Positions 2,944 to 37,740 of a stretch of DNA of 37,740 bases are shown in pieces. This DNA is from a virus. Lineage: Duplodnaviria > Heunggongvirae > Uroviricota > Caudoviricetes. A program made the translations under genes and the position numbers. The DNA lies in the IMG/VR virus record IMGVR_UViG_2603880148_000004; one strand, written 5' to 3'. The notes under the pieces were generated by a model. It was given only the letters and a program-made list of their open reading frames with translations, did not search any database and was not told the origin of the DNA. The number at the start of each line of letters is the position of its first letter. Position 1 is the stretch's first letter.

Positions 2944-3080
2944 TGTTTGAGTCTTATATGGCAGAACGTCTTCGCCGCCGCTGGGTGCGCCTGCGCTTAT
3001 ATCGTTTCCCCGGTTCTGTTTTGACCGATTACCGAATACTGAAGAGTTACGCCAAAACCCTGACAGGAGCAGGAGTATGA
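2940..3080 (+). CDS. ylcG: YlcG-like small protein, 46 aa
   Basis: Manually translated [46 protein letters not shown]; overlaps rusA stop; DLP12 gene order. Confidence 0.6.
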
Positions 3081-3165
3081 AGTCAGAGATAACAATCAAC
3101 TAATACTGTTTTGTTGATTTTTGCTTGTAATTGGCGTTTTGGTCTGATTTTTGTGGAGTAAGTTG

Positions 3166-3549
3166 ATGCGTGATATTCAGATGGTTCTTGAGCGTTGGGG
3201 AGCGTGGGCGGCTAATAATCATGAAGATGTGACCTGGTCGTCCATTGCCGCCGGTTTTAAGGGATTAATTCCTTCAAAAGTAAAATCTCGCCCGCAATGT
3301 TGTGACGATGACGCGATGATCATTTGCGGGTGCATGGCCCGTCTGAAAAAGAACAACAGCGATTTGCACGATTTATTAGTAGATTATTATATAGTCGGTA
3401 TGACATTCATGTCACTGGCAGGTAAGCATTGCTGCTCTGATGGTTATATCGGGAAAAGGTTACAAAAGGCTGAGGGCATAATTGAAGGGATGTTAATGGC
3501 ATTAGATATCCGGTTAGAGATGGATATCGTTGTTAATAACTCTAATTAA
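3166..3549 (+). CDS. quuD: Late-gene antiterminator Q (QuuD type), 127 aa
   Basis: ATG at 3166 with RBS ggagt; [24 protein letters not shown]... matches DLP12 QuuD from memory; Cys-rich zinc-binding motif; placed before lysis genes. Confidence 0.85.
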
Positions 3550-3570
3550 TACGCCAATTATTTACTAAAA

Positions 3571-3601
3571 GTTATTAAAAATGGGGCGTTGAAACGCCCC
3601 C
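3571..3601 (-). terminator. Putative intrinsic terminator for the minus-strand porin transcript
   Basis: Hairpin ggggcg/ttgaaa/cgcccc; on the minus strand it is followed by a T-rich run (atttttaat). Confidence 0.4.
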
Positions 3602-3688
3602 AAAAATAAAGGGTAATATATAACAGAAGATTTGTATAGTTAGAAGCAAGGTTGTGCTTCTAAAGGAAGTGGCTTGAGGGAGCCACTT

Positions 3689-3726
3689 ATATGTTGGGGA
3701 GGCAAAGCCTCCCACAACATATCTTT
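3689..3726 (+). terminator. Near-perfect palindrome, possible plus-strand terminator (tR'-like) or bidirectional terminator
   Basis: atatgttggggagg-caaag-cctcccacaacatat followed by ctttt; lies between Q and the 3' end of the porin gene. Confidence 0.3.
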
Positions 3727-3737
3727 TAGTAATCAAA

Positions 3738-4820
3738 TTAGAACTGGTAAACCATACCTACAGCAACGATATCATCGGTAGCAACGCCAGATGCTTTCGT
3801 GAAATCGCTCTTATCAATCAGGTTGATTTTGTAGTCAACAAAAGTGGACATATTTTTGTTGAAGTAATAGGTTGCACCTACATCAACATACTCAACCAGG
3901 TCCTGATCACCCCAAACACCCAAGTCTTTTCCTTTAGAATGCAGGTAAGCAACGGATGGACGCAGGCCGAAGTCGAACTGATATTGTGCAACAGCTTCGA
4001 AGTTTTGTGCTTTGTTGGCAATATGGTTATTACCAAAAACAGTCATGTTCTGGGTTTCAGAATAGGTGGTGGCCAGATAGATGTTGTTCGCATCATATTT
4101 CAGACCAGCTGCCCATACTTCAGCATTTTGACCAGAAGCATTCAGACCGTTGTTACCGTAGATAACCTGATTATTAGTGCGATCAGATTTAGCATAGGTT
4201 GCACCCACGCCGAATCCTTCATACTCATAAGTAGTTGAGAAACCGAAACCATCGCCATTAGCTTCAGTTACTTCATTTCGGTCATTTTTGCCCTGATACT
4301 GAGCTGCAAAGTTCAGGCCATCAACCAGACCAAAGAAGTCGTTGTTACGATAAGTTGCAACACCTGTGGTGCGACCAGTCATGAATACATCTGTTTGGGT
4401 CCAGGTATCGCCACCGAATTCTGGCAGAACGTCGGTCCATGCACCAATATCGTATGCTACACCGTAGTTACGGCCATAATCGATGGAGCCGTAGTCACCG
4501 AATTTCAGGCCAGCGAAGGCAAGACGGGTTTTATCTTTGGAGGAACCTTGAGATTCAGCGCGGTTGCCTTTGAATTCATATTCCCACTGACCGAAACCAG
4601 TCAGTTGATCGTTGATTTGGGTTTCACCTTTGAAGCCAAGACGGGCATAAGTAGTATCACCATCATCTGCATCATTAGAGGAGAAGTAGTGCTTAGCATT
4701 AACTTTCCCGTACAGATCCAGCTTGTTACTGTCTTTATTATAAATTTCAGCTGCCTGAGCAGACATCGCCATCAGTACTGATGCAGCTACAGCAGAAATT
4801 GCCACTGTTAATTTTTTCAT
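3738..4820 (-). CDS. nmpC: Outer-membrane general porin, NmpC/Lc family (lysogenic-conversion porin), 360 aa
   Basis: [23 protein letters not shown] signal peptide then [16 protein letters not shown]... and C-terminal ...VGMVYQF typical of OmpC/NmpC porins; start chosen at MKK (4820), not the upstream in-frame extension. Confidence 0.9.
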
Positions 4821-5245
4821 CGTGAGACCTTTTTTTGAACATTTATTAAAAAATGATGCCCTGCGCGACAAATATTCATCTAATCAATGTGATTAATTCA
4901 AGATGTAAGTTTTAGATTCTTATTTAAATTGTGATCTAGATCTCTATTTTTATCTGAACTTTTTCTAATGCATGCTGTGCATGACTATTCTCTGAAAGAA
5001 AATAAATTTGGTAGCTAAATTATATTAAAGGTTGTTATTTATAAGTGTTCTATAATTCATCTCTTTAATTTAAATTCACTGAAAATAACGTCGGAAATTA
5101 TTTAATGATTATTTGTTTATTTTTCCTTATGTGATTGTGGTGGTGTTTTGAACACTCGATATCATTCTCACAAATATTGTTTAGAGGTTTACGTACGTAA
5201 AAAATTGGTTATGCTGTTAAGAGTGGTTACTTCGCCACACAGCTT
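4821..5245. promoter_or_regulatory. AT-rich intergenic region: porin promoter (minus strand) and possibly a phage late promoter (plus strand)
   Basis: 425 bp strongly AT-rich without ORFs upstream of the porin start; followed by a plus-strand terminator. Confidence 0.3.
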
Positions 5246-5272
5246 AAACCCGCCGTCGAGCGGGTTTTTTTG
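5246..5272 (+). terminator. Rho-independent terminator (candidate tR'-like terminator before the late genes)
   Basis: Hairpin acccgc-cgtcga-gcggg followed by seven T residues on the plus strand. Confidence 0.55.
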
Positions 5273-5394
5273 TACCTGTAAACCTGGTGCAGTACGGTAA
5301 ACACGCTGGTGGTCGTGAATACTGACTTTTTATCTTGCTGGCTTTTTAGACAAGAGTTATTGGTATGTCATGTTAACCATGAAGGTAAAAAGAC

Positions 5395-5589
5395 ATGCTA
5401 AAACAGCTAGATATGACAGAAACGGCGAAAGTTGTTTTTAATGAATTAAACGGCAAACCGGCAACAGTCGGGGAGATTGCACAAAACACATACCTTTCAC
5501 GCGAACGCTGTCAGTTAATACTGACCCAGCTGGTTATGGCGGGGCTGGCAGATTACCAGTTCGGCTGTTACAGACGCCTTCAGCAATGA
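5395..5589 (+). CDS. Hypothetical small protein, 64 aa
   Basis: ORF with moderate RBS; same strand and immediately upstream of the methyltransferase gene. Confidence 0.45.
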   Translation: MLKQLDMTETAKVVFNELNGKPATVGEIAQNTYLSRERCQLILTQLVMAGLADYQFGCYRRLQQ

Positions 5590-5738
5590 AGGGCTTTTAA
5601 TTTGTGAAAATGGGCGGCTGGTGGGTGTTGGTAGCACCTGCCAGCCATTCGCTCATGCTTACTGGTCACAAGCGAACCACGGCCCACTGCTTTAGCGCAA
5701 AAGCAGAGTGAGCCTACCAGAGTTACGCTTACTGATCC

Positions 5739-6791
5739 ATGAAAAATACTGTGAAAATAAACAGTGCTGATTTAATCAACGCTGATTGCCTGCATTTTAT
5801 TCAGTCCCTGCCTGATGATTCCATTGACCTGATTGTTACCGATCCGCCGTACTTCAAGGTGAAACCCAACGGTTGGGACAATCAGTGGAAAGGGGACGAA
5901 GATTACCTGAAGTGGCTGGACCACTGTCTGGCTCAGTTCTGGCGGGGGCTGAAACCTGCCGGAAGCCTTTACCTGTTCTGTGGACATCGCCTCGCATCTG
6001 ATATCGAGATCATGATGCGTGAACGTTTCAACGTTCTTAACCATATTATCTGGGCGAAGCCGTCCGGACGATGGAACGGGTGTAATAAAGAAAGTCTGCG
6101 CGCATATTTTCCCGCAACAGAACGCGTTCTGTTTGCTGAACATTACCAGGGACCATATCGCGGCAAAAGTGACGGCTATGCGGCAAAAGAAAGTCAACTC
6201 AAACAGCACATAATGGCACCGCTGATTTCGTATTTCAGGGATGCTCGTGCCGAACTGGGTATAACGGCAAAACAGATTGCCGAAGCCACTGGTAAGAAAA
6301 ATATGGTTTCCCACTGGTTTGGTGCCAGTCAGTGGCAGTTGCCGAATGAGGCTGACTACCGGAAGTTGCAGGCACTGTTTTCCCGTATAGCGGCAGAGAA
6401 ATTTCAGGAACAACAACTGGAACAACCACACCACCAGCTGGTGGCATCTTATGATTCACTGAATCGCAAATATTCTGAATTGCTGGATGAGTTTAAAACT
6501 CTCCGGCGCTATTTCTCCGTATCAGTTTCCGTGCCTTATACCGACGTCTGGACGCATAAACCCGTTCAGTTCTACCCGGGTAAACATCCGTGTGAGAAGC
6601 CTGCGGATATGCTCCGGCAAATAATCAGTGCCAGTAGTCGACAAGGCGATCTGGTTGCTGATTTCTTTATGGGATCCGGTTCCACAATAAAAGCGGCAAT
6701 GGCGCTGGGGCGTCGGGCGTTAGGTGTTGAACTTGAGTCAGAGCGGTTTAATCAGACGGTGAAAGAGGTAAGTGAACTGGTGGGGAAATAA
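5739..6791 (+). CDS. Orphan DNA methyltransferase, beta class (N6-adenine or N4-cytosine), 350 aa
   Basis: DPPY motif (LIVTDPPYF) near the N-terminus and FxGxG SAM-binding motif (VADFFMGSGST) near the C-terminus; no adjacent restriction endonuclease gene. Confidence 0.85.
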   Translation: MKNTVKINSADLINADCLHFIQSLPDDSIDLIVTDPPYFKVKPNGWDNQWKGDEDYLKWLDHCLAQFWRGLKPAGSLYLFCGHRLASDIEIMMRERFNVLNHIIWAKPSGRWNGCNKESLRAYFPATERVLFAEHYQGPYRGKSDGYAAKESQLKQHIMAPLISYFRDARAELGITAKQIAEATGKKNMVSHWFGASQWQLPNEADYRKLQALFSRIAAEKFQEQQLEQPHHQLVASYDSLNRKYSELLDEFKTLRRYFSVSVSVPYTDVWTHKPVQFYPGKHPCEKPADMLRQIISASSRQGDLVADFFMGSGSTIKAAMALGRRALGVELESERFNQTVKEVSELVGK

Positions 6792-6867
6792 TTCTGGTGG
6801 CCACGTTGCGTGGCCTTTTTATTTCCAACACAGCACCCGCAAATATCGCGAGGTGAGAGATGACGAA

Positions 6868-7203
6868 ATGCCTCATAACCCAAATACCTGGCCGGACTGG
6901 CTGGAGTTGTTTCAGAGCTGGTGGCGTGGAGATACGCCGCTGGGCGCAGTGATTATGTCGATTGTTATGGCTGGGTTGCGCATCGCCTATTTTGGCGGTG
7001 GTGGTGGCTGGAAGCGAAAAACGCTCGAGATTTTGCTATGTGGCGCTCTGACGTTGACCTTTGCATCCGCGCTTGAGTATGTCGGATGGCCTAAATCGCT
7101 TTCTGTTGCCATTGGTGGTGGGGTGGGGCTGATCGGTGTCGATGCTATTCGTGGTGCGGCAATGAGGGTCATCGGTAACAAGTTCGGTGCCCATAAGGAG
7201 TAA
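6868..7203 (+). CDS. Putative holin, about 111 aa (start uncertain; ORF open from 6772)
   Basis: Directly precedes the R endolysin; hydrophobic segments (GAVIMSIVMAGLRIAYF, LEILLCGALTLTFASALEYVGW, AIGGGVGLIGV) and charged C-terminus; RBS gaggtgagag upstream of ATG 6868. Confidence 0.6.
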   Translation: MPHNPNTWPDWLELFQSWWRGDTPLGAVIMSIVMAGLRIAYFGGGGGWKRKTLEILLCGALTLTFASALEYVGWPKSLSVAIGGGVGLIGVDAIRGAAMRVIGNKFGAHKE

Positions 7204-7206
7204 TTA

Positions 7207-7683
7207 ATGCAGACACTTAATTCCCAGCGTAAAGCTTTCCTTGATATGGTGGCATGGTCAGAAGGAACAGATAACGGACGGCAGAAAACCAGAAATCACG
7301 GTTATGATGTTATTGTCGGTGGCGAACTGTTCACTGATTACTCCGATCACCCCCGCAAACTTGTCACGCTAAATCCGAAACTCAAATCAACAGCCGCTGG
7401 ACGTTACCAGCTTCTTTCACGCTGGTGGGATGCCTACCGCAAGCAACTTGGCCTGAAAGATTTTTCTCCAGAAAGTCAGGATGCTGTAGCGCTGCAGCAG
7501 ATTAAAGAGCGTGGCGCTTTGCCGATGATTGATCGCGGTGATATCCGTCAGGCTATCGACCGTTGCAGCAATATATGGGCTTCACTGCCGGGCGCTGGTT
7601 ATGGTCAGTTCGAGCATAAGGCTGACAGTCTGATTGCAAAATTCAAAGAAGCTGGCGGAACGGTCAGAGAGATTGAGGTATGA
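7207..7683 (+). CDS. R: Endolysin, lambda R-type lytic transglycosylase, 158 aa
   Basis: ...[47 protein letters not shown]... nearly identical to lambda R as I recall it. Confidence 0.92.
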
Positions 7684-8144
7684 GCAGAGTAACCGCGATT
7701 ATCTCCGCTCTGGTTATCTGCATCGTCGTCTGCCTGTCATGGGGTGTTAATCATTACCGTGATAACGCCATCGCCTACAAAGAACAGCGCGACAAAAATG
7801 CCAGAGAACTGAAGCTGGCGAACGCGGCAATTACTGACATGCAGATGCGTCAGCGTGATGTTGCTGCGCTCGATGCAAAATACACGAAGGAGTTAGCTGA
7901 TGCGAAAGCTGAAAATGATGTTCTGCGTGATGATGTTGCCGCTGGTCGTCGTCGGTTGCACATCAAAGCAGTCTGTCAGTCAGTGCGTGAAGCCACCACC
8001 GCCTCCGGCGTGGATAATGCAGCCTCCCCCCGACTGGCAGACACCGCTGAACGGGATTATTTCACCCTCCGGGAACGACTGGTAATGATGCAGGCCCAAC
8101 TTGAAGGTGCTCAGCAATACATAACCGAGCAGTGTTTAAAGTAA
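7680..8144 (+). CDS. Rz: Spanin, inner-membrane subunit Rz, 154 aa
   Basis: N-terminal TMD then coiled-coil; lambda Rz-like; start overlaps R stop. Confidence 0.9.
7900..8085 (+). CDS. Rz1: Spanin, outer-membrane lipoprotein subunit Rz1, embedded in Rz in the +1 frame, 61 aa
   Basis: [24 protein letters not shown]... lipobox LVVVGC, proline-rich [15 protein letters not shown]; matches lambda Rz1 from memory. Confidence 0.85.
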
Positions 8145-8281
8145 AATCTTAACTACAATATGATTCATTTTGATGATTGTTTCATAAGGAACAGTGAAGT
8201 AAGATCTAAGAGGAGTTAAATTTTATACAGTATAATCATAATATTGCAGCAAGGTGGTTATAATTGAAAGAATATTTAGAT

Positions 8282-9739
8282 ATGAATACATCTCATGTAA
8301 GAGTTGTTACTCATATGTGTGGGTTCCTGGTTTGGCTCTATAGTCTTTCAATGTTGCCACCAATGGTTGTAGCATTGTTTTATAAAGAAAAAAGCCTGTT
8401 CGTTTTCTTTATAACTTTCGTTATATTTTTTTGCATTGGTGGCGGAGCGTGGTATACAACTAAGAAATCTGGCATTCAATTACGTACCCGTGATGGGTTT
8501 ATTATAATTGTAATGTTTTGGATTTTGTTTTCTGTTATTAGTGCATTCCCTTTATGGATTGACTCAGAACTTAATTTAACGTTCATTGATGCTCTGTTTG
8601 AAGGGGTTTCTGGAATAACAACAACAGGAGCAACTGTAATTGATGATGTTAGTTCATTACCTCGGGCATATTTGTACTATCGGTCACAGTTAAATTTTAT
8701 AGGTGGTTTAGGAGTTATTGTTCTGGCGGTTGCTGTATTGCCATTATTGGGTATTGGTGGTGCAAAGCTTTATCAGTCAGAAATGCCGGGGCCATTTAAG
8801 GATGACAAACTCACTCCCCGCCTGGCCGATACGTCACGGACACTGTGGATAACTTATTCTTTATTAGGTATTGCTTGTATTGTCTGTTATAGACTTGCAG
8901 GAATGCCTTTGTTTGATGCTATTTGTCACGGGATTTCCACAGTTTCGCTTGGTGGTTTCTCAACTCATAGCGAGAGTATCGGATATTTTAATAACTATTT
9001 GGTTGAGCTGGTGGCTGGTTCTTTTTCCCTGCTATCGGCTTTCAACTTCACTCTTTGGTATATTGTTATTAGCAGGAAAACGATAAAACCTTTAATCAGA
9101 GATATTGAACTTCGTTTCTTTCTGTTAATAGCCTTAGGGGTGATCATTGTTACCTCTTTCCAGGTCTGGCATATAGGTATGTATGACTTGCATGGAAGTT
9201 TTATTCATTCGTTTTTTCTTGCCAGCTCCATGCTCACTGATAATGGTTTAGCTACGCAGGATTATGCAAGTTGGCCCACGCACACGATAGTGTTTTTGCT
9301 GTTGTCAAGTTTCTTTGGGGGATGTATAGGTTCAACTTGTGGTGGAATTAAGTCACTTCGATTTCTTATACTTTTCAAACAAAGCAAACACGAGATAAAT
9401 CAGCTTTCTCATCCCAGAGCGTTGTTGAGTGTAAATGTAGGAGGGAAGATAGTTACAGATCGTGTAATGAGGTCTGTATGGAGTTTCTTTTTTCTTTATA
9501 CTCTCTTCACGGTGTTTTTTATACTGGTGTTAAATGGTATGGGATATGATTTTCTTACATCATTTGCAACAGTGGCGGCATGTATTAATAATATGGGATT
9601 AGGTTTTGGGGCTACTGCATCGTCATTCGGAGTGCTTAATGACATTGCAAAATGTTTAATGTGCATAGCTATGATTCTTGGTCGCCTTGAAATTTATCCT
9701 GTTATTATATTGTTTTCAGGTTTTTTTTGGCGCTCCTAA
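8282..9739 (+). CDS. trkG: TrkG-type K+ uptake membrane protein (TrkH/TrkG family), 485 aa
   Basis: MNTSHVRVVTHMCGFLVWLYSL... multi-pass membrane protein matching Rac-prophage TrkG from memory; gene is AT-rich; alternative TTG start at 8264 with RBS aaggtgg. Confidence 0.88.
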   Translation: MNTSHVRVVTHMCGFLVWLYSLSMLPPMVVALFYKEKSLFVFFITFVIFFCIGGGAWYTTKKSGIQLRTRDGFIIIVMFWILFSVISAFPLWIDSELNLTFIDALFEGVSGITTTGATVIDDVSSLPRAYLYYRSQLNFIGGLGVIVLAVAVLPLLGIGGAKLYQSEMPGPFKDDKLTPRLADTSRTLWITYSLLGIACIVCYRLAGMPLFDAICHGISTVSLGGFSTHSESIGYFNNYLVELVAGSFSLLSAFNFTLWYIVISRKTIKPLIRDIELRFFLLIALGVIIVTSFQVWHIGMYDLHGSFIHSFFLASSMLTDNGLATQDYASWPTHTIVFLLLSSFFGGCIGSTCGGIKSLRFLILFKQSKHEINQLSHPRALLSVNVGGKIVTDRVMRSVWSFFFLYTLFTVFFILVLNGMGYDFLTSFATVAACINNMGLGFGATASSFGVLNDIAKCLMCIAMILGRLEIYPVIILFSGFFWRS

Positions 9740-9876: not shown

Positions 9877-10668
9877 ATGAGCGAGAAATTAAAGATAGTC
9901 TATCGCCCATTACAAGAATTGTCACCGTATGCGCACAACGCCAGGACGCACAGTACTGAGCAGGTGGCACAACTGGTAGAAAGTATTAAGCAATTCGGCT
10001 GGACTAATCCGGTGCTGATTGACGAAAAGGGCGAAATTATTGCGGGTCACGGTCGTGTTATGGCGGCTGAAATGCTCAAAATGGATTCTGTTCCGGTCAT
10101 TGTTCTGTCTGGCCTGACGGATGAGCAGAAAAAGGCGTACCGCCTGGCAGATAATCGCCTGCCGATGAATGCTGGCTGGGATGAAGATCTGTTGCGGATG
10201 GAGCTGTCGGACCTAATCAATGCTGATTTTGATGTCTCCCTGACAGGCTTCATCCCGACAGAAATTGATGAACTGTTGACGGATGTTTTGCCCGGTACAG
10301 GAAATGAGGAGGAGCCGTATACGACGAAAATTGATACGCCTGTTTATGAGCCGTCGGGCGGTAAACCGGATATCAGTGAACTGTACGACGATACGAAAAC
10401 TCAGGAGCTGATCAGCCGGATACGTTCGGCGTCCCTTGAGCCTGATATTGAGAAATTCCTCCTGTGTGCGGCAGAACGTCACACGGTGTTTAATTTCAGC
10501 AGAATTGCGGACTATTACGCTCACGCCCCCTCTGAAATTCAGTGTTTTTTCGAGGAGTCGGCGCTGGTGATCATTGATTATCAGCAGGCTATTGAAAATG
10601 GATTTGTCCGGATGACGCAGCGCATGGTGGAGATCATGCATGGTGGTGAGGAGGAGGAATATGCATGA
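9877..10668 (+). CDS. ParB-like nuclease domain protein (ParB/sulfiredoxin fold), 263 aa
   Basis: N-terminal motif LIDEKGEIIAGHGRVMAAEML resembles the ParB N-domain core; acidic C-terminal tail; K-12 Rac ynaK is a short relative at the same position. Confidence 0.7.
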   Translation: MSEKLKIVYRPLQELSPYAHNARTHSTEQVAQLVESIKQFGWTNPVLIDEKGEIIAGHGRVMAAEMLKMDSVPVIVLSGLTDEQKKAYRLADNRLPMNAGWDEDLLRMELSDLINADFDVSLTGFIPTEIDELLTDVLPGTGNEEEPYTTKIDTPVYEPSGGKPDISELYDDTKTQELISRIRSASLEPDIEKFLLCAAERHTVFNFSRIADYYAHAPSEIQCFFEESALVIIDYQQAIENGFVRMTQRMVEIMHGGEEEEYA

Positions 10669-22513: not shown

Positions 22514-25500
22514 ATGGCAGAGCAAACCTCGCGTCTCGCAATAATTATTGATAGCACTGGAGCAAAAAATAATGCTGACAATCTGACCTCCTCATTAGTC
22601 AAAATGACGCAGGCCGGGGAAACTGCTGCAAATAGCGCAGGGAAAGTGACTAAGGCAACAGAAGATGAGAAGAACGCGCTCGCAAAATTAAAAGCAGCTA
22701 TTGATCCAGTTGGTGCCGCAATTGATACTGTCGGTCGACGCTATTCTGAATTAAAGAAATTTTTCGATAAAGGGCTTATTGATAAAGAAGAATATGAATT
22801 TCTTGTCCGTAAACTTAATGAAACCACAGAGGAATTGAGCGGGGTTGCGCAAGCGCAGAGAGAAGTCGAGAAGGCCGGAAAACTTGCTGCCGCCCAGCAG
22901 GAAGCGCAGGCTCAGGCCTTTCAAAGAATGCTGGACAAGATCGACCCTCTGGCTGCGGCGCTAAGAAATCTTGAACAACAGCATGATGAACTTAATGCTG
23001 CGTTTGCATCCGGGAAAATAAATGGTTCTCAGTTTGAGAATTATAGCCGAAAAATACAGGAAACACGGCGAGAGCTTACCGGAGAGGCTCAGGCAGAGCG
23101 AGAAGCAGCAAAAGCGCATGATGAACAGGTTGTTGCTTTGCAACGTCTGATTGCTCAACTTGATCCTGTCGGAACTGCTTTTAATCGTCTGGTAGAACAA
23201 CAGAAACAGCTCAATGAAGCAAAAGCCAAGGGGATGCTTTCTCCTGAAATGTATGAGGAGCTTTCTGGAAAACTTCGTGCTATGCGGAGTGAGCTTGAGG
23301 TTACTCAATCACAATTAAGCAAAACCGGAATGTCGGCAAAACAAACGGCTTTTGCTATGCGCATGTTGCCTGCACAAATGACGGATATTGTTGTTGGGTT
23401 GTCCACTGGTCAGTCGCCATTTATGGTGTTAATGCAGCAGGGCGGCCAGCTAAAAGATATGTTCGGTGGGATTGGCCCGGCGATCAAAGGTGTAGGTTCT
23501 TATGTGCTGGGATTAATTAATCCTTTTACCCTGGCCGCAGCAGCCGTTGGGGTCTTAGGACTGGCTTACTATAAAGGCTCTCAGGAGCAGGACGAATTTA
23601 ATAAATCTCTTATTCTTACCGGAAATTAGTTGGGGACAACCAGCGGGCAATTGGGCGATATAGCTCAACGTGCCGGGAATGCGGCTGATTCGACAACTGG
23701 TGCTGCGGCGGCAGTATTAAATCAGCTTGTGCGTTCGGGAAAGGTAGCGAGCAGTTCGCTGGAGCAAGTGACGACAGCGATAGTAAAAACGAGCGAAGTA
23801 ACAGGAATATCAACCGAACAACTGGTTAATGACTTCAATGAAATTGCAAAGGATCCTGTCAGTGCCATATCAAAACTTAATGATCAGTACCATTTTCTGA
23901 CACTTGCGACTTATAACCAGATTAAGGCGCTACAGGATGAAGGGAACCAGCAGGAGGCCGCCCGCATTGCGACAGAAGAATACTCATCCTCAATGATCCA
24001 GCGCACCAACCAGATTAAAGAAAATCTTGGTTATCTTGAGACTGCATGGAAAGCTGTCGCAGACTCCGCAAAATGGGCATGGGATTCCATGCTGGATATT
24101 GGCCGTGAGACCTCCCTTGATCAAAAAATCTCAGATGTTCTCCGTCAAATTGATGAAATAGAAAAAAATACCCGACCCGGAGTTTTCGGGTTAGGTGGCA
24201 TTGGAGATGGCGGAGCTCAAAATAAAAGGCTGGCACGATTAAAGCAGCAATTGGGCGTACTTCAAGCAGAAAAAATTGCTCAGGACGTACTAAATTCATC
24301 AATAAACGATTACAACAAGCGACAACAGGAAGGAATTGAACTCAGACAGAGAGCAGATGCCTTTTCAAAACAATATCAGACCCGGGAGCAGCAGAGAGCT
24401 AGTGAACTTGCAAAACTGGAAAAGCTAAAGAATCAGTATTCAAAGGAAGAATATAATAATCTTATCGCTCAAATAAATGAGCGTTATAAAGATCCAAAGC
24501 AACCAAAGGCGAAAGGTTATTCTGATGATGCAGCCCAACGAATGATTGATCATCTGAATCAACAGAATGCGTTACTAAGTTCACAAGCTGAGTTGACCGT
24601 TAAATTAAGTTCCTCTGAACAGGAACTGGTTAAGTGGCGTCAGCGGATTGCCGACCTAGAGTCACGACCATCATCGAAATTAACCCAGGATCAGAAATCG
24701 CTTCTCTTACACCGGGAAGAAATAACCGCGTTGATGGAGAAAAATGTTACGATTGAAAAGAATAACAGGCTAATCAAGGAATCCGCCGAAATAACAGCAT
24801 GGCGTGATTCATTGCAGGCTTCGATTGATAATCGTCAGCAGGGGTATGATATTCAGATTGCTGGTTATGGGGTTGGCGATAAAAATCAGCAACGCCAGCA
24901 GGAATTACTGCGGATTGAACATGGATATAACAATCAGCGTCTGCAACTTGAACGTGACTATGCAGATAAATCCCGTGGAATGTCAGATCATGTTTTTCAA
25001 GAGAAAATGCAGGCTCTGAATGATGCTCTGGAACGGGAAAAAGAAATTGTCAGACAGAAAAACGAGCAGCTCGATATTCAGGCAGGAGACTGGGTTAGTG
25101 ATGCCTCCCAGGGATTCAATAACTGGCTGGATGACACTAAGGATATCAGTGAGCAGATAAAATCAACCACGACTCAGATGTTTGATGGGATGACCGATGC
25201 GCTGGGTGATTTTGTCACGACAGGCAAGGCAAATTTTCGTTCTTTCGCTACTTCCGTGATTTCGGATCTTAGTCGAATAGCATTAAAGGCTTCAATTACT
25301 GGGATTTTCGACAGCATTAGTAACAGTTCTTCTGGGGGGATTTTAGGAACTATCGGGAGTGCTATTAGTAAATTTATTCCGAATGCAAAGGGCGGTGTTT
25401 ATGAGTCTCCGTCATTGAGCACGTATTCGAACGGTATTTATGATTCCCCGCAATTTTTTGCTTTTGCAAAAGGGGCTGGTGTTTTTGGTGAGGCTGGACC

Positions 25501-25747
25501 GGAAGCCATTATGCCATTAACACGAACTTCCGATGGTTCTCTTGGTGTCAGAGCTATTAATAGTAAAAGTGGTAATGGAGGCGGAGATATTACCTATGCC
25601 CCTGTATACCAAATCACTATTCAAAATGACGGCCAGAATGGAGAGATTGGCCCTCAGGCAATAAAAGCACTTATGGGGATGGTTGATCAGCGGGTGCAGG
25701 GCAATCTGTTAAATATGCGACGTGATGGGGGAATGTTAAGTGGCTAA
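22514..25747 (+). pseudogene. Tail tape measure protein gene interrupted by an in-frame TAG at 23627-23629 (371-aa and 705-aa segments in one frame)
   Basis: Both ORFs share a reading frame and are separated only by TAG; the second begins at TTG straight after the stop; coiled-coil-rich N-terminal part and Gly-rich C-terminal part; combined length about 1077 aa. Confidence 0.75.
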
Positions 25748-31090: not shown

Positions 31091-33178
31091 ATGTTTGCTT
31101 CAGTCAAAGAACTGGTTGGATTACCGGGGATGCCGGGAACGGAGCAAGGCGTTCGCTATTCAATCAGGAAGTATGCAACCAGCGAAACCAGCAGACGCCG
31201 CAAGAAAGGCGCTAAAGGTTTTGAATACAGCATTGACTGTTTACCTGAAGTGACACAGCAGGCATTACGCGAACGTTATGCCCTGCAACTGATGACGCAA
31301 AAAGCCGATGAATCACCGGCTCCGGTGGTGACAAAGGCCAGACGCTCGTCTGCCGTGGTTGATGCGGTGGAGGCATATCGCGGATCACCACAACTGATGG
31401 TCGAACGCCTCAATGCCCTGACTGAAAACCAGCGCCAGGTGGCAGACGCACGCATTGCGATCGTCAGTGAGGTGCTGAAATTCACGCAACAACCCGGTTT
31501 CAGCTGCGCTAAAGCTATCCGGTTCATCGTTGACCGCCTGTCACACTCGCAACTGGATGAGCGCATTGTGGCAATGGTTGAGATAGCGAACGCCAGAAAG
31601 GGAAACAGTCGCGTGTTGAGTGAAATCACGCTGAAACGCTGGATTGCGGCCTTTAATAAGGCACAGAACGCTGCTGAACGCCTGCTTTTGCTGGCACCAG
31701 GTAAACGCCAGGAAATAAAAGCCGAAGATATTAACTGGTTGCCCGAATTTCTGGCGCAGTATCGCCAGTCAAACGGCCGACCAATGACCGAGGCTTACGA
31801 GGATTTTGTTGCCGAATGGCAGCACCGGCACGCTGATGAGCCTTATATGCTCGATATCATGCCGTCTTATGACACCATTCGCCGCGCAATGAAGAAACTG
31901 CCGGAAGTGGTGAAACAAAAAGGACGGGTTACCGGCAGTGAATACCGCCAGCTTGAGGGATTCACGCGCCGCGACTGGTCAAAAATGCCGGTGAATTATG
32001 TCTGGATTGGTGACGGTCACGGCATGAAGCTGAAATGCGCGCACCCGGTTCACGGGCGGCCATTCGCACCGGAAGTGACCTTTGTTATCGACGGTGGCAC
32101 GCGCTTTGTGGTGGGCTGGAGCCTTGACCTGGCTGAAAATGTTTTCGCCGTAGCCGGTGCCATACAGCACGGTATTCGCCATCATGGCAAACCGTTTCTG
32201 TATTACTCGGATAATGGCTCCGGGGAAACCGCCGACGTCCTGGATAAGGAGATTGTGGGGATACTGCCACGACTGGGGATTAATCACCCGACAGGGATTG
32301 CCGGTAATCCGCAGGGACGGGGCATTATCGAACGGCTTAACCGCACATTACCGATGCGCATAGCCCGTAAATACCGCACCTATTTCGGGAAAGGAGCAGA
32401 TCGCGAGACGTTACGTAAAACCAACCGCGATTTACGCTCGGCATTCAGTGCCCTGCAACAGGGCAAACGGCTGAACGCCCGGCAGCAGTCAGCGATGCGT
32501 GATTTACCGTCCTGGTCTGAACTGATTGATGCCATTCGTGACGGTGTTGAGTGGTACAACAACCGGCCGCACGATGAATTACCCATGAAGCCGAACGGTA
32601 AACATTACAGCCCGGCGGAGTTCAGAAAAAAACGCCTGGCGGAAGAGGACACGGAAATTGAATGGCTGTCCGATGTTGAACTGCGGGATATGTTCCGGCC
32701 GATGGTGGAGCGCCCTGTAAGACGCTGTGAAATACGCTGGCTGAATAATATTTACTACGCGCCCGAGCTGCGTGACGAGCATGGCCGTAAGGTACTTATC
32801 AGCTATGACATTCATGATGCCGAACGAATTACCGTGCGCCGCCCGGATGGCAGCGTGATTTGCGAGGCGGTATGGGACGGCAATAAACGCGAAGCCTTCC
32901 CTGTCAGCGCGGAATACTACAAACAGCAGCAGCGCCTTAAAGGCATGCGTAAACGCGCAGAGGAAAAAATCCGTGATGCCGAGGATGAGGTTGTCAACGT
33001 GCGGGAGCACAAGCCGCAGGAGCCCTGGCTGGAAAACATATACCGCCCTGTGGGTAATACGGTGACCGTTCAGCAACCGGTCGCTGACGATGAACCTGAT
33101 GAAGAATACGAGCGTAATTTCCAGCGGGGATTGCAACTGCTCGAAGCGAAATTAAAAGAAAGTGATCCGCTGGCCTGA
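31091..33178 (+). CDS. Mu-type DDE transposase (MuA-like), 695 aa
   Basis: Size and position after ner; N-terminal segment VKELVGLPGMPGTEQGVRYSIRK...KGAKGFEYSIDCLP resembles the MuA N-terminal DNA-binding domain; followed by the MuB-like ATPase. Confidence 0.85.
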   Translation: MFASVKELVGLPGMPGTEQGVRYSIRKYATSETSRRRKKGAKGFEYSIDCLPEVTQQALRERYALQLMTQKADESPAPVVTKARRSSAVVDAVEAYRGSPQLMVERLNALTENQRQVADARIAIVSEVLKFTQQPGFSCAKAIRFIVDRLSHSQLDERIVAMVEIANARKGNSRVLSEITLKRWIAAFNKAQNAAERLLLLAPGKRQEIKAEDINWLPEFLAQYRQSNGRPMTEAYEDFVAEWQHRHADEPYMLDIMPSYDTIRRAMKKLPEVVKQKGRVTGSEYRQLEGFTRRDWSKMPVNYVWIGDGHGMKLKCAHPVHGRPFAPEVTFVIDGGTRFVVGWSLDLAENVFAVAGAIQHGIRHHGKPFLYYSDNGSGETADVLDKEIVGILPRLGINHPTGIAGNPQGRGIIERLNRTLPMRIARKYRTYFGKGADRETLRKTNRDLRSAFSALQQGKRLNARQQSAMRDLPSWSELIDAIRDGVEWYNNRPHDELPMKPNGKHYSPAEFRKKRLAEEDTEIEWLSDVELRDMFRPMVERPVRRCEIRWLNNIYYAPELRDEHGRKVLISYDIHDAERITVRRPDGSVICEAVWDGNKREAFPVSAEYYKQQQRLKGMRKRAEEKIRDAEDEVVNVREHKPQEPWLENIYRPVGNTVTVQQPVADDEPDEEYERNFQRGLQLLEAKLKESDPLA

Positions 33179-36221: not shown

Positions 36222-36755
36222 ATGATTGATGCAAAAGTGCTTGAAGGGGTTAAAAACTGGCTGTGTATTTATGGCCGCCTGACCTGCGGTGTACTGGCTG
36301 AAAAAATGAATATGCCGCCATCCTCCATGGTTTATTTTCTGCGTGATGCGGTTGATGCAGGCGTGCTGACGGAATGTAACGGTTTTTATGATATTCCGCG
36401 CCCCCGCCCGGTGCAGCCGGTTCGTCGCAAATGCAGCCAGGAATCTGCGGCTGATGATGTTCAGTGGTGCGGCTTCAGAAAATCCCTGCCATGGATTGAG
36501 GGGCATGATATTCCGTCGATGGCGTGGGAATTTGCTCAGGGCGTTCTGACCTGTGAAACCGTTTATGTGGTGGCTGAAGTTGATGAGCAGGCCATGAAAG
36601 AAGGCGTGCCCCAGTTTGTGATGGCGTATATCGACATACGCCTGGGCGTCATTATCTGCGGTTTAAGCGGCTGGAATATCACTGAACATGTTCTGCGCTA
36701 CCTGATTGTTGACCGGACAGCAGCGCCTGCCGGGATATCTGCGGAGGTGGCGTAA
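36222..36755 (+). CDS. Hypothetical Mu-like early protein, 177 aa
   Basis: ORF with RBS ggtgggga; position similar to Mu GemA-type genes (position only). Confidence 0.5.
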   Translation: MIDAKVLEGVKNWLCIYGRLTCGVLAEKMNMPPSSMVYFLRDAVDAGVLTECNGFYDIPRPRPVQPVRRKCSQESAADDVQWCGFRKSLPWIEGHDIPSMAWEFAQGVLTCETVYVVAEVDEQAMKEGVPQFVMAYIDIRLGVIICGLSGWNITEHVLRYLIVDRTAAPAGISAEVA

Positions 36756-37270
36756 TGTTCTTTAAAACATCAAACCCTTCCGCGCTGGCTGCGTGGCAAA
36801 AATACCAGCAGGACTGCCAGAAAGTTAAGGATGAGGCAAAACGCCTTGAGGCCGTGCTGAATGTTGCGTGCCGGTCGGTATTTGTATCCGGTATCAGTGG
36901 ATTTTACTTTAAGGGACTGCGTTTTACGGAGGACAAATATCCTTTTCATCGCGACTTATGGCGAAAACCGACTGCGTCGAATGGCTGGAGCTGCACACCG
37001 CGCACATCACGTATCCCTAAAACCCTGCGTGTTGCCTCTGATGAACTGAACAGTCTGTGGCGTGAATATTCGCCCGTCACGTATGCCAGAACCGATGCGC
37101 TGTTGTTCTGGTTGGGTATTGATTTCTCGGCAATCCTGTTTGGCCCTGTGAAGTGGTTCTGCGTTGACGATGTGATTTACCTTCAGTGCGGCGTAAAACC
37201 CGCAAAACAGAAAATGACCGAAATACTGTCTGATGAGTTTTATGCTGCTGAAAAGCGAGTCAGGGGGTGA
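36755..37270 (+). CDS. Hypothetical Mu-like early protein, 171 aa
   Basis: ORF with RBS ggaggtgg; start overlaps preceding stop. Confidence 0.5.
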   Translation: MFFKTSNPSALAAWQKYQQDCQKVKDEAKRLEAVLNVACRSVFVSGISGFYFKGLRFTEDKYPFHRDLWRKPTASNGWSCTPRTSRIPKTLRVASDELNSLWREYSPVTYARTDALLFWLGIDFSAILFGPVKWFCVDDVIYLQCGVKPAKQKMTEILSDEFYAAEKRVRG

Positions 37271-37273
37271 TGC

Positions 37274-37471
37274 ATGATGAAATTACAACCCATGGGACTA
37301 AAAGGTCGCGCCCCCGCTCATGTCCGTCCGTGGACACCTGAAGAAGATGCGCTGCTGATTGCGCTTTATTCATCCACCCCGGTTAAGGATATTGCTGCCA
37401 GAATAAAAAGAACTGTCTGGGCTGTATATAACCGGACTGGTGTATTGCGCAGTTCATACCCGGAGTTACTG
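37274..37471 (+). pseudogene. Mu-like early gene truncated by IS1 insertion (first about 66 codons intact)
   Basis: ORF MMKLQPMGLKGRAPAHVRPWTPEEDALLIALY... runs into the IS1 terminus at 37472; its last about 26 codons are read from IS1 sequence. Confidence 0.4.
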
Positions 37472-37740
37472 GGTAGTGACTCCAACTTACTGATAGTGTT
37501 TTATGTTCAGATAATGCCCGATGACCTTGTCATGCAGCTCCACCGATTTTGAGAACGACAGCGACTTCCGTCCCAGCCTTGCCAGATGTTGTCTCAGATT
37601 CAGATTATGTCGCTCAATGCGCTGAGTGTAACGCTTGCTGATAACGTGCAGCTTTCCCTTCAGGCGTGATTCATACAGCGGCCAGCCATCCGTCATCCAT
37701 ACCACGACCTCAAAGGCCGACAGCAGGCTCAGAAGACGCT
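37472..37740 (-). mobile_element. Partial IS1, inverted relative to the copy at 1-267, cut by the window edge
   Basis: ggtagtgactccaacttactgatagtgttttatgttcag... is the reverse complement of the IS1 end at 240-267; encodes an identical InsB C-terminus on the minus strand. Confidence 0.85.
37487..37740 (-). CDS. insB: IS1 transposase InsB, C-terminal fragment (N-terminus outside the window)
   Basis: Minus-strand translation identical to the InsB fragment at 1-252. Confidence 0.85.

Follow-up and report, generated by a model that had tools for sequence, protein, structure and literature searches.

Two probable classes of cargo position between antiterminator Q and the lysis genes in a defective lambdoid prophage of Escherichia coli

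The interval between the antiterminator gene Q and the lysis genes of the prophage described here probably offers two mechanistically different positions for cargo, one independent of Q and expressible in the lysogen, the other dependent on Q and used late only. It lies in a window (the whole stretch of DNA analysed, 37,740 nucleotides; IMG/VR record IMGVR_UViG_2603880148_000004) and most likely represents the late-control region of a defective lambdoid E. coli prophage at attB-lambda (ybhC to ybhB/bioA), built from two familiar modules joined at the late terminator. The first, resembling DLP12 and ev243, would consist of a QuuD-type Q and a reverse-strand porin moron equipped with terminators and an AT-rich promoter region of its own. 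The second, resembling orf47/orf48 of phage SfV, would lie downstream of the terminator tR' and comprise a 64-aa protein, a 140-nt leader, a methylase, a terminator, and S, R and Rz. An earlier sequence-only reading had reported an intact porin on the opposite strand, a 64-aa ORF and a beta-class methylase between Q and the holin, and all three are where it put them. It had also treated the interval as a single slot equivalent to the one that holds stx in Stx phages. This description suits the 64-aa ORF and the methylase, whose position would be Q-dependent, but not the porin, which is upstream of the 5188-5273 block, on the other strand and with its own signals. The distinction helps predict which cargo genes, toxins among them, are already expressed in the lysogen and which have to await induction. 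The features of the region are the following.

3166..3549, + strand: antiterminator Q, QuuD (DLP12) type (PF06530, 180.4 bits; start 3166 and stop 3549 as in RefSeq)
3583..3722, - strand: hairpin cluster 3' of the porin stop (terminator scan; kept in ev243, ev017 and DLP12)
3738..4820, - strand: intact porin of the NmpC/Lc/OmpC family, 360 aa with signal peptide (PF00267, 506.9 bits)
4821..5187, no strand assigned: AT-rich region (27-36% GC) upstream of the porin (composition profile)
5188..5201, + strand: 14-bp perfect palindrome TTTACGTACGTAAA, candidate Q-binding element; overlaps the TTTACG hexamer (-35) of the candidate late promoter
5188..5245, + strand: candidate late promoter pR' (TTTACG-16-TATGCT, -10 at 5210-5215) with conserved initial transcribed sequence GTTAAGAGTGGTTACTTCGCCAC
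5246..5273, + strand: intrinsic terminator tR' (terminator scan; annotated terminator in SfV)
5395..5589, + strand: 64-aa stand-alone winged-helix protein, SfV orf47 family (phrog_331, E 1e-33)
5577..5592, + strand: hairpin with U-rich tail across the small-ORF stop codon, a weak terminator-like site (terminator scan)
5602..5738, + strand: structured methylase leader (conservation, covariation, fold)
5739..6791, + strand: orphan beta-class N6-adenine DNA methyltransferase of the M.EcoGII family, 350 aa (PF01555)
6799..6825, + strand: intrinsic terminator between methylase and holin (terminator scan; annotated terminator in SfV)
6868..8144, + strand: lambda-type lysis cassette S, R, Rz (TIGR01594 holin_lambda; PF03245 for Rz; RefSeq annotation)
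6868-7203, + strand: lambda-type holin, starting 77 nt past the methylase stop

The locus is already known. RefSeq record NZ_CM128582.1 matches the region at 100% with identical gene calls, this 5.2-kb segment is carried by 27 of 5,426 complete E. coli genomes, and both passenger genes are well known, so the observation is correct but ordinary.

Q belongs to the QuuD type by its Pfam match and by its near-identity (98%) to QuuD of K-12; the Q21 structure 6P18 is a distant match (E 1e-7). QuuD is presumably to be grouped with the Q protein of phage 82. The latter, 82Q, is thought to contact its QBE as a dimer (PMC4914094). The TTTACGTACGTAAA palindrome occurs once in the window, where 0.02 matches would be expected by chance, and it follows the Q type: it was found in all 11 loci with a QuuD-type Q and in none of 79 other loci. 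In cargo-free relatives (Trabulsiella, Xenorhabdus, Photorhabdus) it sits 40-66 nt past the Q stop codon. The pR' candidate overlapping it is the best one on the + strand between 4880 and 5400, albeit weak (6.2 bits with a crude sigma-70 weight matrix), and a sigma-70 consensus scan yielded no + strand promoter above threshold. Its -10 position is retained in relatives, and four DLP12-type phages show 100% identity across the late-promoter block, against 85-90% in the surroundings. The terminator that comes next folds at -19.8 kcal/mol (z -3.35) and forms a mosaic junction, at which ev243/DLP12 homology stops and SfV/mEp460 homology starts. We consider it likely that the palindrome marks the late promoter, with tR' directly following. 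Transcription would start near 5220 and Q would bind the palindrome; such a start places the 82-type pause (+25) at the foot of the terminator, and a clear -10-like pause element was not seen there. Since the palindrome tracks the Q type and its usual place is 40-66 nt past Q, the porin cassette appears, with good probability, to be an insertion that separates Q from its own late promoter and brings its own signals on the other strand. Homology of the 5193-5273 segment to isrK (Rfam RF01394) was rejected, since it scores 15.6 bits where the gathering score is 50 and the terminator drives the alignment; so was homology to the Trp, Phe and Leu leaders returned by Rfam in E-value mode, which scored far below their gathering scores and aligned on the terminator.

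Porins of the NmpC/Lc kind have been known since the 1980s, and there is precedent for their expression and outer-membrane insertion in lysogens. The porin of the window has everything expected of a full-length general bacterial porin of the OmpC/NmpC/Lc group. The PF00267 alignment covers positions 1-337 of the 337 in the model, the NCBIfam OmpC subfamily score is 515 bits against a cutoff of 484, and the protein has a signal peptide, the L3 motif PEFGGD and a C-terminal aromatic residue (...VYQF). Its start is the ATG at 4820, giving the same 360 aa as in RefSeq, in place of the upstream TTG at 4871 given in the ORF list. Whereas nmpC of K-12 is truncated by IS5, the copy in the window is intact; the two proteins are 91% identical over the 347 residues that K-12 retains before the insertion, and identity to the functional phage ev243 reaches 99.3% at the nucleotide level. 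The upstream AT-rich region contains a candidate minus-strand promoter at 5135->5108 (promoter scan) and is 84-90% conserved with DLP12, ev243 and ev017. On the other side of the gene, the last hairpin of the cluster (3600->3583) has the canonical form of an intrinsic terminator for the minus strand; it is not a terminator for the + strand, where an A-rich sequence follows. The earlier proposal that the porin is a lysogenic-conversion candidate is supported; we likewise regard it as a candidate moron. Two short ORFs were treated as spurious: one of 53 aa (3575-3736, - strand), which has no family match and overlaps the hairpin cluster, and one of 50 aa (5148-5300, + strand), which spans the promoter and terminator block.

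The early region of the prophage has been lost through an IS1-associated deletion. IS1 immediately follows int/xis, with a P22AR fragment and the nin region as the genes that come next; the tape-measure gene contains an internal stop according to the annotation of the 100%-identical record. Because the prophage is defective, its late genes may never be expressed in the present host. The porin might then be the sole working gene in this strain, the methylase, the small ORF and the lysis genes persisting as unexpressed relics of a broken early-to-late cascade (N, cI, O and P lost). We give this possibility somewhat less than an even chance. The deletion and the tape-measure lesion both speak for it, as does the fact that M.EcoGI and M.EcoGII are unexpressed in their own host. 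On the other hand, all ORFs from Q through Rz are intact and the methylase retains every catalytic motif, while Q could be supplied from IS1-proximal or cryptic promoters or, in trans, by a prophage with the same type of Q. In any event, the question concerns activity in the present host and leaves the identity of the two modules unaffected.

The methylase scores 139.3 bits with PF01555 (gathering threshold 26.7). Its DPPY motif at residues 35-38 and its FxGxG motif (FMGSG) at 310-314 occur in the beta-class order and line up with their counterparts in M.EcoGII, M.RsrI and others. Both findings that would have told against the sequence-only reading are thus absent, the catalytic residues (DPPY, FxGxG) being present and the porin ORF intact. 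The description of the enzyme as an orphan also holds: no endonuclease-like ORF or nuclease domain was found next to the methylase in the region and its flanks, so that the locus does not qualify as a Type II restriction-modification system, and PADLOC returned matches to methylase models alone. Identity to M.EcoGII extends over 281 of 349 residues (81%) and is again 81% to the enzyme of phage 1720a-02, which was named as a close relative by Murray et al. (PMC5778455). Compared with reconstructed ancestors, the protein is 88% identical to Anc291 (M.EcoGII itself being 83%) and 69% identical to Anc284/SUPREM; the reference sequences for these comparisons, taken by machine reading of a supplement, could contain a few misread letters. 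M.EcoGII is a non-specific, prophage-borne enzyme, unexpressed in the lysogen and deleterious if constitutive (PMC5778455); the reconstructed ancestors are all active on DNA and RNA, and Anc291 and SUPREM proved non-site-specific on RNA by nanopore sequencing (PMC11551740). The window enzyme resembles M.EcoGII and M.EcoGI, from prophages of E. coli O104:H4 (PMC5778455), in length (350 versus 349 aa), in the DPPY-TRD-FxGxG order and in being a prophage-borne orphan; this, together with the close full-length relationship, places it in the M.EcoGII clade. The M.EcoGII publication does not describe a place behind tR', a partner ORF or a leader, all of which are present in the window.

Since two proteins shown to methylate adenine irrespective of sequence are so close to it, M.EcoGII (81% identity) and a reconstructed ancestor (88%), the methylase probably lacks a target motif and would be an M.EcoGII-type adenine hypermethylase. 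Some doubt attaches to specificity because the enzyme departs from M.EcoGII at 19% of its residues, of which many fall in the central TRD region: the 68 differences among 349 positions are concentrated at about residues 140-260. The same differences could be taken to indicate a sequence-specific orphan, possibly an epigenetic regulator in the lysogen; M.PflMI, the closest site-specific relative of the clade, proves that the fold can be specific, and both PADLOC and NCBI label the protein simply as a Type II or site-specific methylase. We nonetheless judge this unlikely, since the enzyme falls inside the M.EcoGII clade alongside M.EcoGII, Anc291 and Anc284/SUPREM, all of them non-specific, sits behind a terminator in a late operon, and has homologues for which methylome studies of lysogens saw no extra motif. 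As regards the earlier proposals for this gene, an anti-restriction function is indeed the reading favoured in the literature for the family, while assigning a target by methylome comparison is probably moot. The product annotated as "DNA-methyltransferase" is better described as very probably an M.EcoGII-type hypermethylase, that is, a broad anti-restriction weapon rather than a motif-specific enzyme. The family was characterised in 2018, so the finding itself adds little and the gain is one of annotation.

Relatives of the two modules are found separately. The quuD-nmpC regions of DLP12 (qsr') in K-12 and of functional phages such as ev243 and ev017 share with the window Q (98%), the reverse-strand porin, the AT-rich spacer, the palindrome and the terminator; they differ in having an S21-type holin directly after the terminator and no methylase module. 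We take the lc region of phage PA-2 to be a further relative of this quuD-porin group. Conversely, the orf47-orf48-S segment of SfV (NC_003444) is 96% identical at the nucleotide level over a stretch that starts with the terminator, takes in the small ORF, the methylase and the second terminator, and runs on into the holin, but SfV has a different Q, of 250 aa, directly upstream and no porin. In phiP27, Stx2a_WGPS2 and 1720a-02, a Q of the same family (45-49% aa identity) is followed by a variable cargo slot and then by a conserved block of initial-transcript and terminator sequences, small ORF, leader and methylase (about 80% nucleotide identity). These Stx2 phages continue with the ileZ/argN/argO tRNAs and stxAB, whereas in the window a terminator and the holin come next. 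Because the ORF-methylase pair immediately precedes the tRNAs and stx in all three, it is not a substitute for stx; on these alignments the window is the stx-less form, like orf47/orf48 of SfV. The absence of stx and tRNA genes noted previously was borne out: tblastn with the A and B subunits of Stx2a and Stx2e gave only matches with E > 0.9, blastn gave none when queried with tRNA-stx segments from two Stx phages, and ARAGORN found no tRNA or tmRNA in the whole window; stxA/stxB and the three tRNAs that define the late region of an Stx-converting phage are thus missing between Q and the lysis genes. It is most improbable that the late promoter lies directly downstream of Q (3550-3600), with Q-modified polymerase reading antisense through the porin and 5188-5273 serving as an internal attenuator only: lambda and many relatives do have pR' directly after Q, Q-modified polymerase ignores terminators so that a 1.7-kb antisense run is possible, and the 190 nt past Q are conserved among DLP12-type phages, but neither an acceptable promoter nor a + strand terminator was found in 3500-3760, the palindrome that goes with QuuD-type Q is at 5188 and not after Q, and in phiP27 and WGPS2 unrelated cargo likewise separates Q from the same conserved block.

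With the late promoter at 5188-5245, the second module would be transcribed only once Q has rendered RNA polymerase resistant to terminators. The porin would be made in the lysogen, altering its set of outer-membrane porins (lysogenic conversion). The methylase would be held off by tR' and the further terminators (its unit is flanked by three + strand terminator-like sites) because indiscriminate adenine methylation is toxic. During late lytic growth the enzyme would be switched on and would methylate adenines of progeny DNA without sequence preference, which might blunt many host restriction systems at once. This timing of expression is inferred, and so are the functions considered below for the 64-aa protein and the methylase leader.

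The 64-aa ORF is a real conserved gene. In 59 of 80 species loci a homologue (54 distinct sequences, all with the motif RCQL(I/L)LTQ) precedes the methylase by 130-190 nt, and the order Q, small ORF, methylase is retained from Escherichia to Proteus and Xenorhabdus. Profile searches gave weak winged-helix matches (TrmB, MarR, DprA_WH); a single-sequence AlphaFold model (pLDDT 57.5) was too poor for a fold search. The layout is analogous to that of antQ-isrK-orf45-anrP in Gifsy-1 (Hershko-Shalev et al. 2016, PMC4825925), where a Q-like gene is closely followed by a short terminated RNA, and readthrough gives rise to a small ORF together with a downstream gene under RNA-structure control; the two loci have no sequence homology and their downstream genes differ.

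A conserved structured leader of about 140 nt precedes the ATG of the methylase. It contains no Shine-Dalgarno sequence, and GATC stands directly before the ATG. Column identity in six phages is 87% and exceeds that of the coding DNA, which is roughly 80% identical at the nucleotide level between the two groups. The predicted minimum free energy is -56.9 kcal/mol (z -3.69), and the predicted stems include P1 (5616-5649) and P2 (5651-5679). Covariation is pronounced, with 88.9% of cells paired against 31-45% when the partners are slid, and 13 pairs changed on both sides; none of 500 shuffles reached the observed values. A model of the leader (R1) has matches of 108 bits or more in 55 sources, always ending at the methylase ATG; no other full-length + strand match was found in 793 kb, and no Rfam family for it was found. 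The AUGGGC segment may pair with either GCCCA (P0) or GCUCAU. The possibility that the segment is a peptide gene (ATG at 5610, MGGWWVLV...) was rejected, as indels shift the frame among relatives and compensatory stem changes rewrite the peptide. Similarly, TGTGAAAAT was dismissed as an extended -10 promoter since about half of the relatives read TGTGGAAAT.

Conceivably, though we advance it only tentatively, the 64-aa winged-helix protein and the leader (5602-5738) act together as a control module not described so far, gating either the translation or the activity of the toxic, non-specific adenine methylases that open the late operon of many lambdoid phages. These include the Stx2 phages, in which stx comes directly after the module. 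In that case the leader would represent a new class of cis-regulatory RNA confined to this methylase family. Together, the RNA and its partner protein offer cheap, testable leads on how phages restrain a toxic enzyme. As to the hairpin across the stop codon of the small ORF, most relatives have one at the corresponding position, even those without the ORF.

As judged from its homologies, the region between the antiterminator gene Q and the holin is composed of two modules joined at a terminator (5246-5273). DLP12, ev243 and ev017 are homologous to the stretch that starts at Q, takes in the porin and the AT-rich region upstream of it and stops at the end of this terminator; homology to SfV (96%) and mEp460 begins at the terminator and spans the 64-aa ORF, the methyltransferase gene and a second terminator, extending into a lambda-type holin. 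The whole 5.2-kb combination was found in 27 of 5,426 complete E. coli genomes, and the methyltransferase module, counted in its close form only (above about 90% identity), in about 360. The content of the locus is already known from RefSeq annotation, DLP12/NmpC, SfV orf47-48 and M.EcoGII; the re-analysis adds the family assignment of the methyltransferase, a proposed split of the hotspot into Q-independent and Q-dependent slots, and two small leads, a leader RNA and a possible winged-helix partner.

Features of the window, with the basis of each call in parentheses
34-252: IS1 end, transposase C-terminus (within 1-700)
3166-3549, plus strand: Q antiterminator (PF06530)
3583-3722: four consecutive hairpins after the porin stop codon, the last a minus-strand terminator (terminator scan)
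3738-4820, minus strand: porin, 360 aa from the RefSeq ATG (PF00267, 506.9 bits)
5188-5201, plus strand: perfect 14-bp palindrome TTTACGTACGTAAA, opening the invariant block (sequence)
5395-5589, plus strand: 64-aa ORF (tblastn conservation)
5602-5741, plus strand: conserved structured leader, 140 nt, directly before the methyltransferase ATG (alignment, covariation)
5739-6791, plus strand: methyltransferase, 350 aa (PF01555)
22514-25747, plus strand: tape-measure gene, internal stop annotated in a 100%-identical RefSeq record (RefSeq)

The 88 nt up to and including the terminator (5187-5275) are near-invariant in four DLP12-type sequences, with one C/T difference, and are flanked by sequence only 85-90% identical. 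The palindrome that opens this block occurs once in the window (chance expectation, 0.02 matches). In a survey of 90 loci, with QuuD-type (DLP12) Q set at 68% identity or more, it was present at all 11 loci with such a Q and at none of the other 79. In cargo-free relatives from Trabulsiella, Xenorhabdus and Photorhabdus it lies 40-66 nt past the Q stop codon (the distance from Q is 1.6 kb in the window); after it come TATTGT or TACTCT, G(A/T)TAAGAGTG and a terminator, in that order. Based on the invariance of the block, the co-occurrence of palindrome and Q and the position in relatives, we read 5188-5245 as a candidate Q-binding element plus late promoter pR' (TTTACG-16-TATGCT) and 5246-5273 as the late terminator tR', the palindrome being the likely Q-binding element. 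A palindromic site fits with 82Q, which is thought to bind its element as a dimer (PMC4914094). The TTTACG-16-TATGCT arrangement was the top plus-strand candidate in a crude weight-matrix scan; the promoter is weak, a standard consensus scan did not pick up the 5188-5245 candidate, and a search of it for a sigma-dependent pause element recognised none. Where a phage has another Q allele, a near-palindrome of another sequence stands at this position, for example ATTCGTTACGAAT in loci L025 and L044 (about 3490-3510), upstream of the conserved initial transcribed sequence GTTAAGAGTGG common to QuuD-type loci. This pairing of a different Q allele with a different near-palindrome before the same sequence suggests that Q-binding sites are allele-specific on a common late leader.

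The sequence-only reading listed elements that are all present, and its interpretation was right only in part: the single slot that it described is not borne out, since the porin precedes the candidate promoter block and the 64-aa ORF and methyltransferase follow tR'. The porin cassette (3550-5187) is an insertion that separates Q from Q's candidate promoter; it runs on the opposite strand and carries at its end a hairpin cluster and a terminator of its own. Other cargo at this position includes a GIY-YIG gene in phiP27, two reverse ORFs in Stx2a_WGPS2 and a hypothetical gene in mEp460. Cargo so placed would be independent of Q and could be expressed in the lysogen, as is classical for the PA-2 Lc and NmpC porins. 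The porin is intact, as had been proposed, with a signal peptide, the loop-3 motif PEFGGD and a C-terminal ...VYQF, and exceeds the cutoff of the NCBIfam model for the OmpC subfamily. Its identity to K-12 NmpC is 91%, the differences being grouped at about residues 181-235 and 262-266, taken to be surface-loop segments. A longer ORF with a TTG start is an artefact, produced by the rule used to call ORFs. Only the last of the four hairpins is a canonical terminator; all are kept in ev243 and ev017, and in K-12 an IS5 is inserted at their position.

The 64-aa ORF and the methyltransferase would lie on the Q-dependent transcript, after tR'. In phiP27, Stx2a_WGPS2 and 1720a-02 this pair is immediately followed by tRNAs and the Shiga toxin genes (stx), so that the pair is a neighbour of stx rather than a substitute. 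The window itself contains no tRNA (ARAGORN) and no match to Stx A/B subunits or to the tRNA-stx DNA of two Stx phages, in agreement with the earlier account. Three plus-strand terminator-like sites, at 5246, 5577 and 6799, bracket the methyltransferase unit, an arrangement that fits a gene having to stay silent.

The beta-class methyltransferase (DPPY at residues 35-38, FxGxG at 310-314) was correctly described as an orphan, no partner endonuclease having been found. A nucleotide search matched phage 1720a-02, which carries an enzyme very similar to M.EcoGII (Murray et al., PMC5778455). Full-length comparison with M.EcoGII, its sequence taken from the supplementary data to the SUPREM paper (PMC11551740), gave 281 of 349 residues identical (81%); identity to the reconstructed ancestors Anc291 and Anc284/SUPREM is 88% and 69%, respectively. 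By these comparisons it is an M.EcoGII-family enzyme, and because it falls inside that clade its activity is most likely non-specific adenine methylation. M.EcoGII methylates adenine in any context, is unexpressed in the lysogenic host and is deleterious under constitutive expression (PMC5778455); the reconstructed ancestors are all active on DNA and RNA, Anc291 and SUPREM being non-site-specific on RNA (PMC11551740). Methylome studies of homologue-bearing strains show no extra motif in lysogens (PMC6602927).

The approximately 150 nt between the 64-aa ORF and the methyltransferase ATG show 87% column identity in six phages, more than the adjacent coding DNA (roughly 80% nucleotide identity between two phage groups), and loci without the ORF still keep the leader. 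In a proposed five-helix structure (MAFFT alignment, 50 distinct sequences), 88.9% of cells pair, compared with 31-45% with partners slid. Pairs changed on both sides number 13, against 5-8 with partners slid; none of 500 shuffles matched the observed values. All these figures are inflated by the derivation of the structure from the same sequences. Compensatory changes occur across genera, one pair being seen as CG, AU and UA. Matches to the covariance model at 108 bits or more come from 55 sources and all end at the ATG of an M.EcoGII-family gene; the model found no further full-length plus-strand match in 793 kb. Rfam holds no family for it. The leader lacks a Shine-Dalgarno sequence and has GATC abutting the ATG; the copy in the window has a folding energy of -56.9 kcal/mol (z -3.69). 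Its predicted role, limiting translation of a toxic methyltransferase, is plausible.

The 64-aa ORF, rightly listed in the slot, is by its conservation a genuine gene: tblastn places it 130-190 nt before the methyltransferase in 59 of 80 species-level loci, from Escherichia to Proteus and Xenorhabdus, and all 54 distinct homologues keep RCQL(I/L)LTQ...AGL. The only matches from profile and family searches were weak ones to winged-helix domains: TrmB, MarR, DprA_WH and the N-terminal domain of the methyltransferase DsyB.

The window belongs to a lambdoid prophage of E. coli. Window positions 3000-8200 are 100% identical to NZ_CM128582.1 (strain 600029), where the prophage is flanked by ybhC on one side and ybhB/bioA on the other, the lambda attachment site. 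The window starts inside an IS1 that itself follows int/xis; next come a C-terminal fragment of P22AR and the nin region (ybcN, ninE, ybcO, rusA, ylcG), so that the immunity and replication region is missing. The prophage lacks its entire early region (recombination, N, cI/cro, O/P) and therefore has no normal induction cascade; with the internal stop in the tape-measure gene, these losses make it defective. Another cargo gene, the potassium-transporter gene trkG (8282-9739, plus strand; GC low, 33-40%), lies between Rz and the head genes; K-12 has a comparable trkG in the Rac prophage. A 263-aa ORF with a ParB_N domain appears at 9877-10668 (plus strand), of which RefSeq marks the first 258 nt only, as a partial ynaK pseudogene. 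The tail end of the prophage carries further cargo, namely an Ail/Lom-family outer-membrane protein (31723-32322, plus strand) and, just within the right boundary, a sensor diguanylate cyclase (36443-37740, minus strand).
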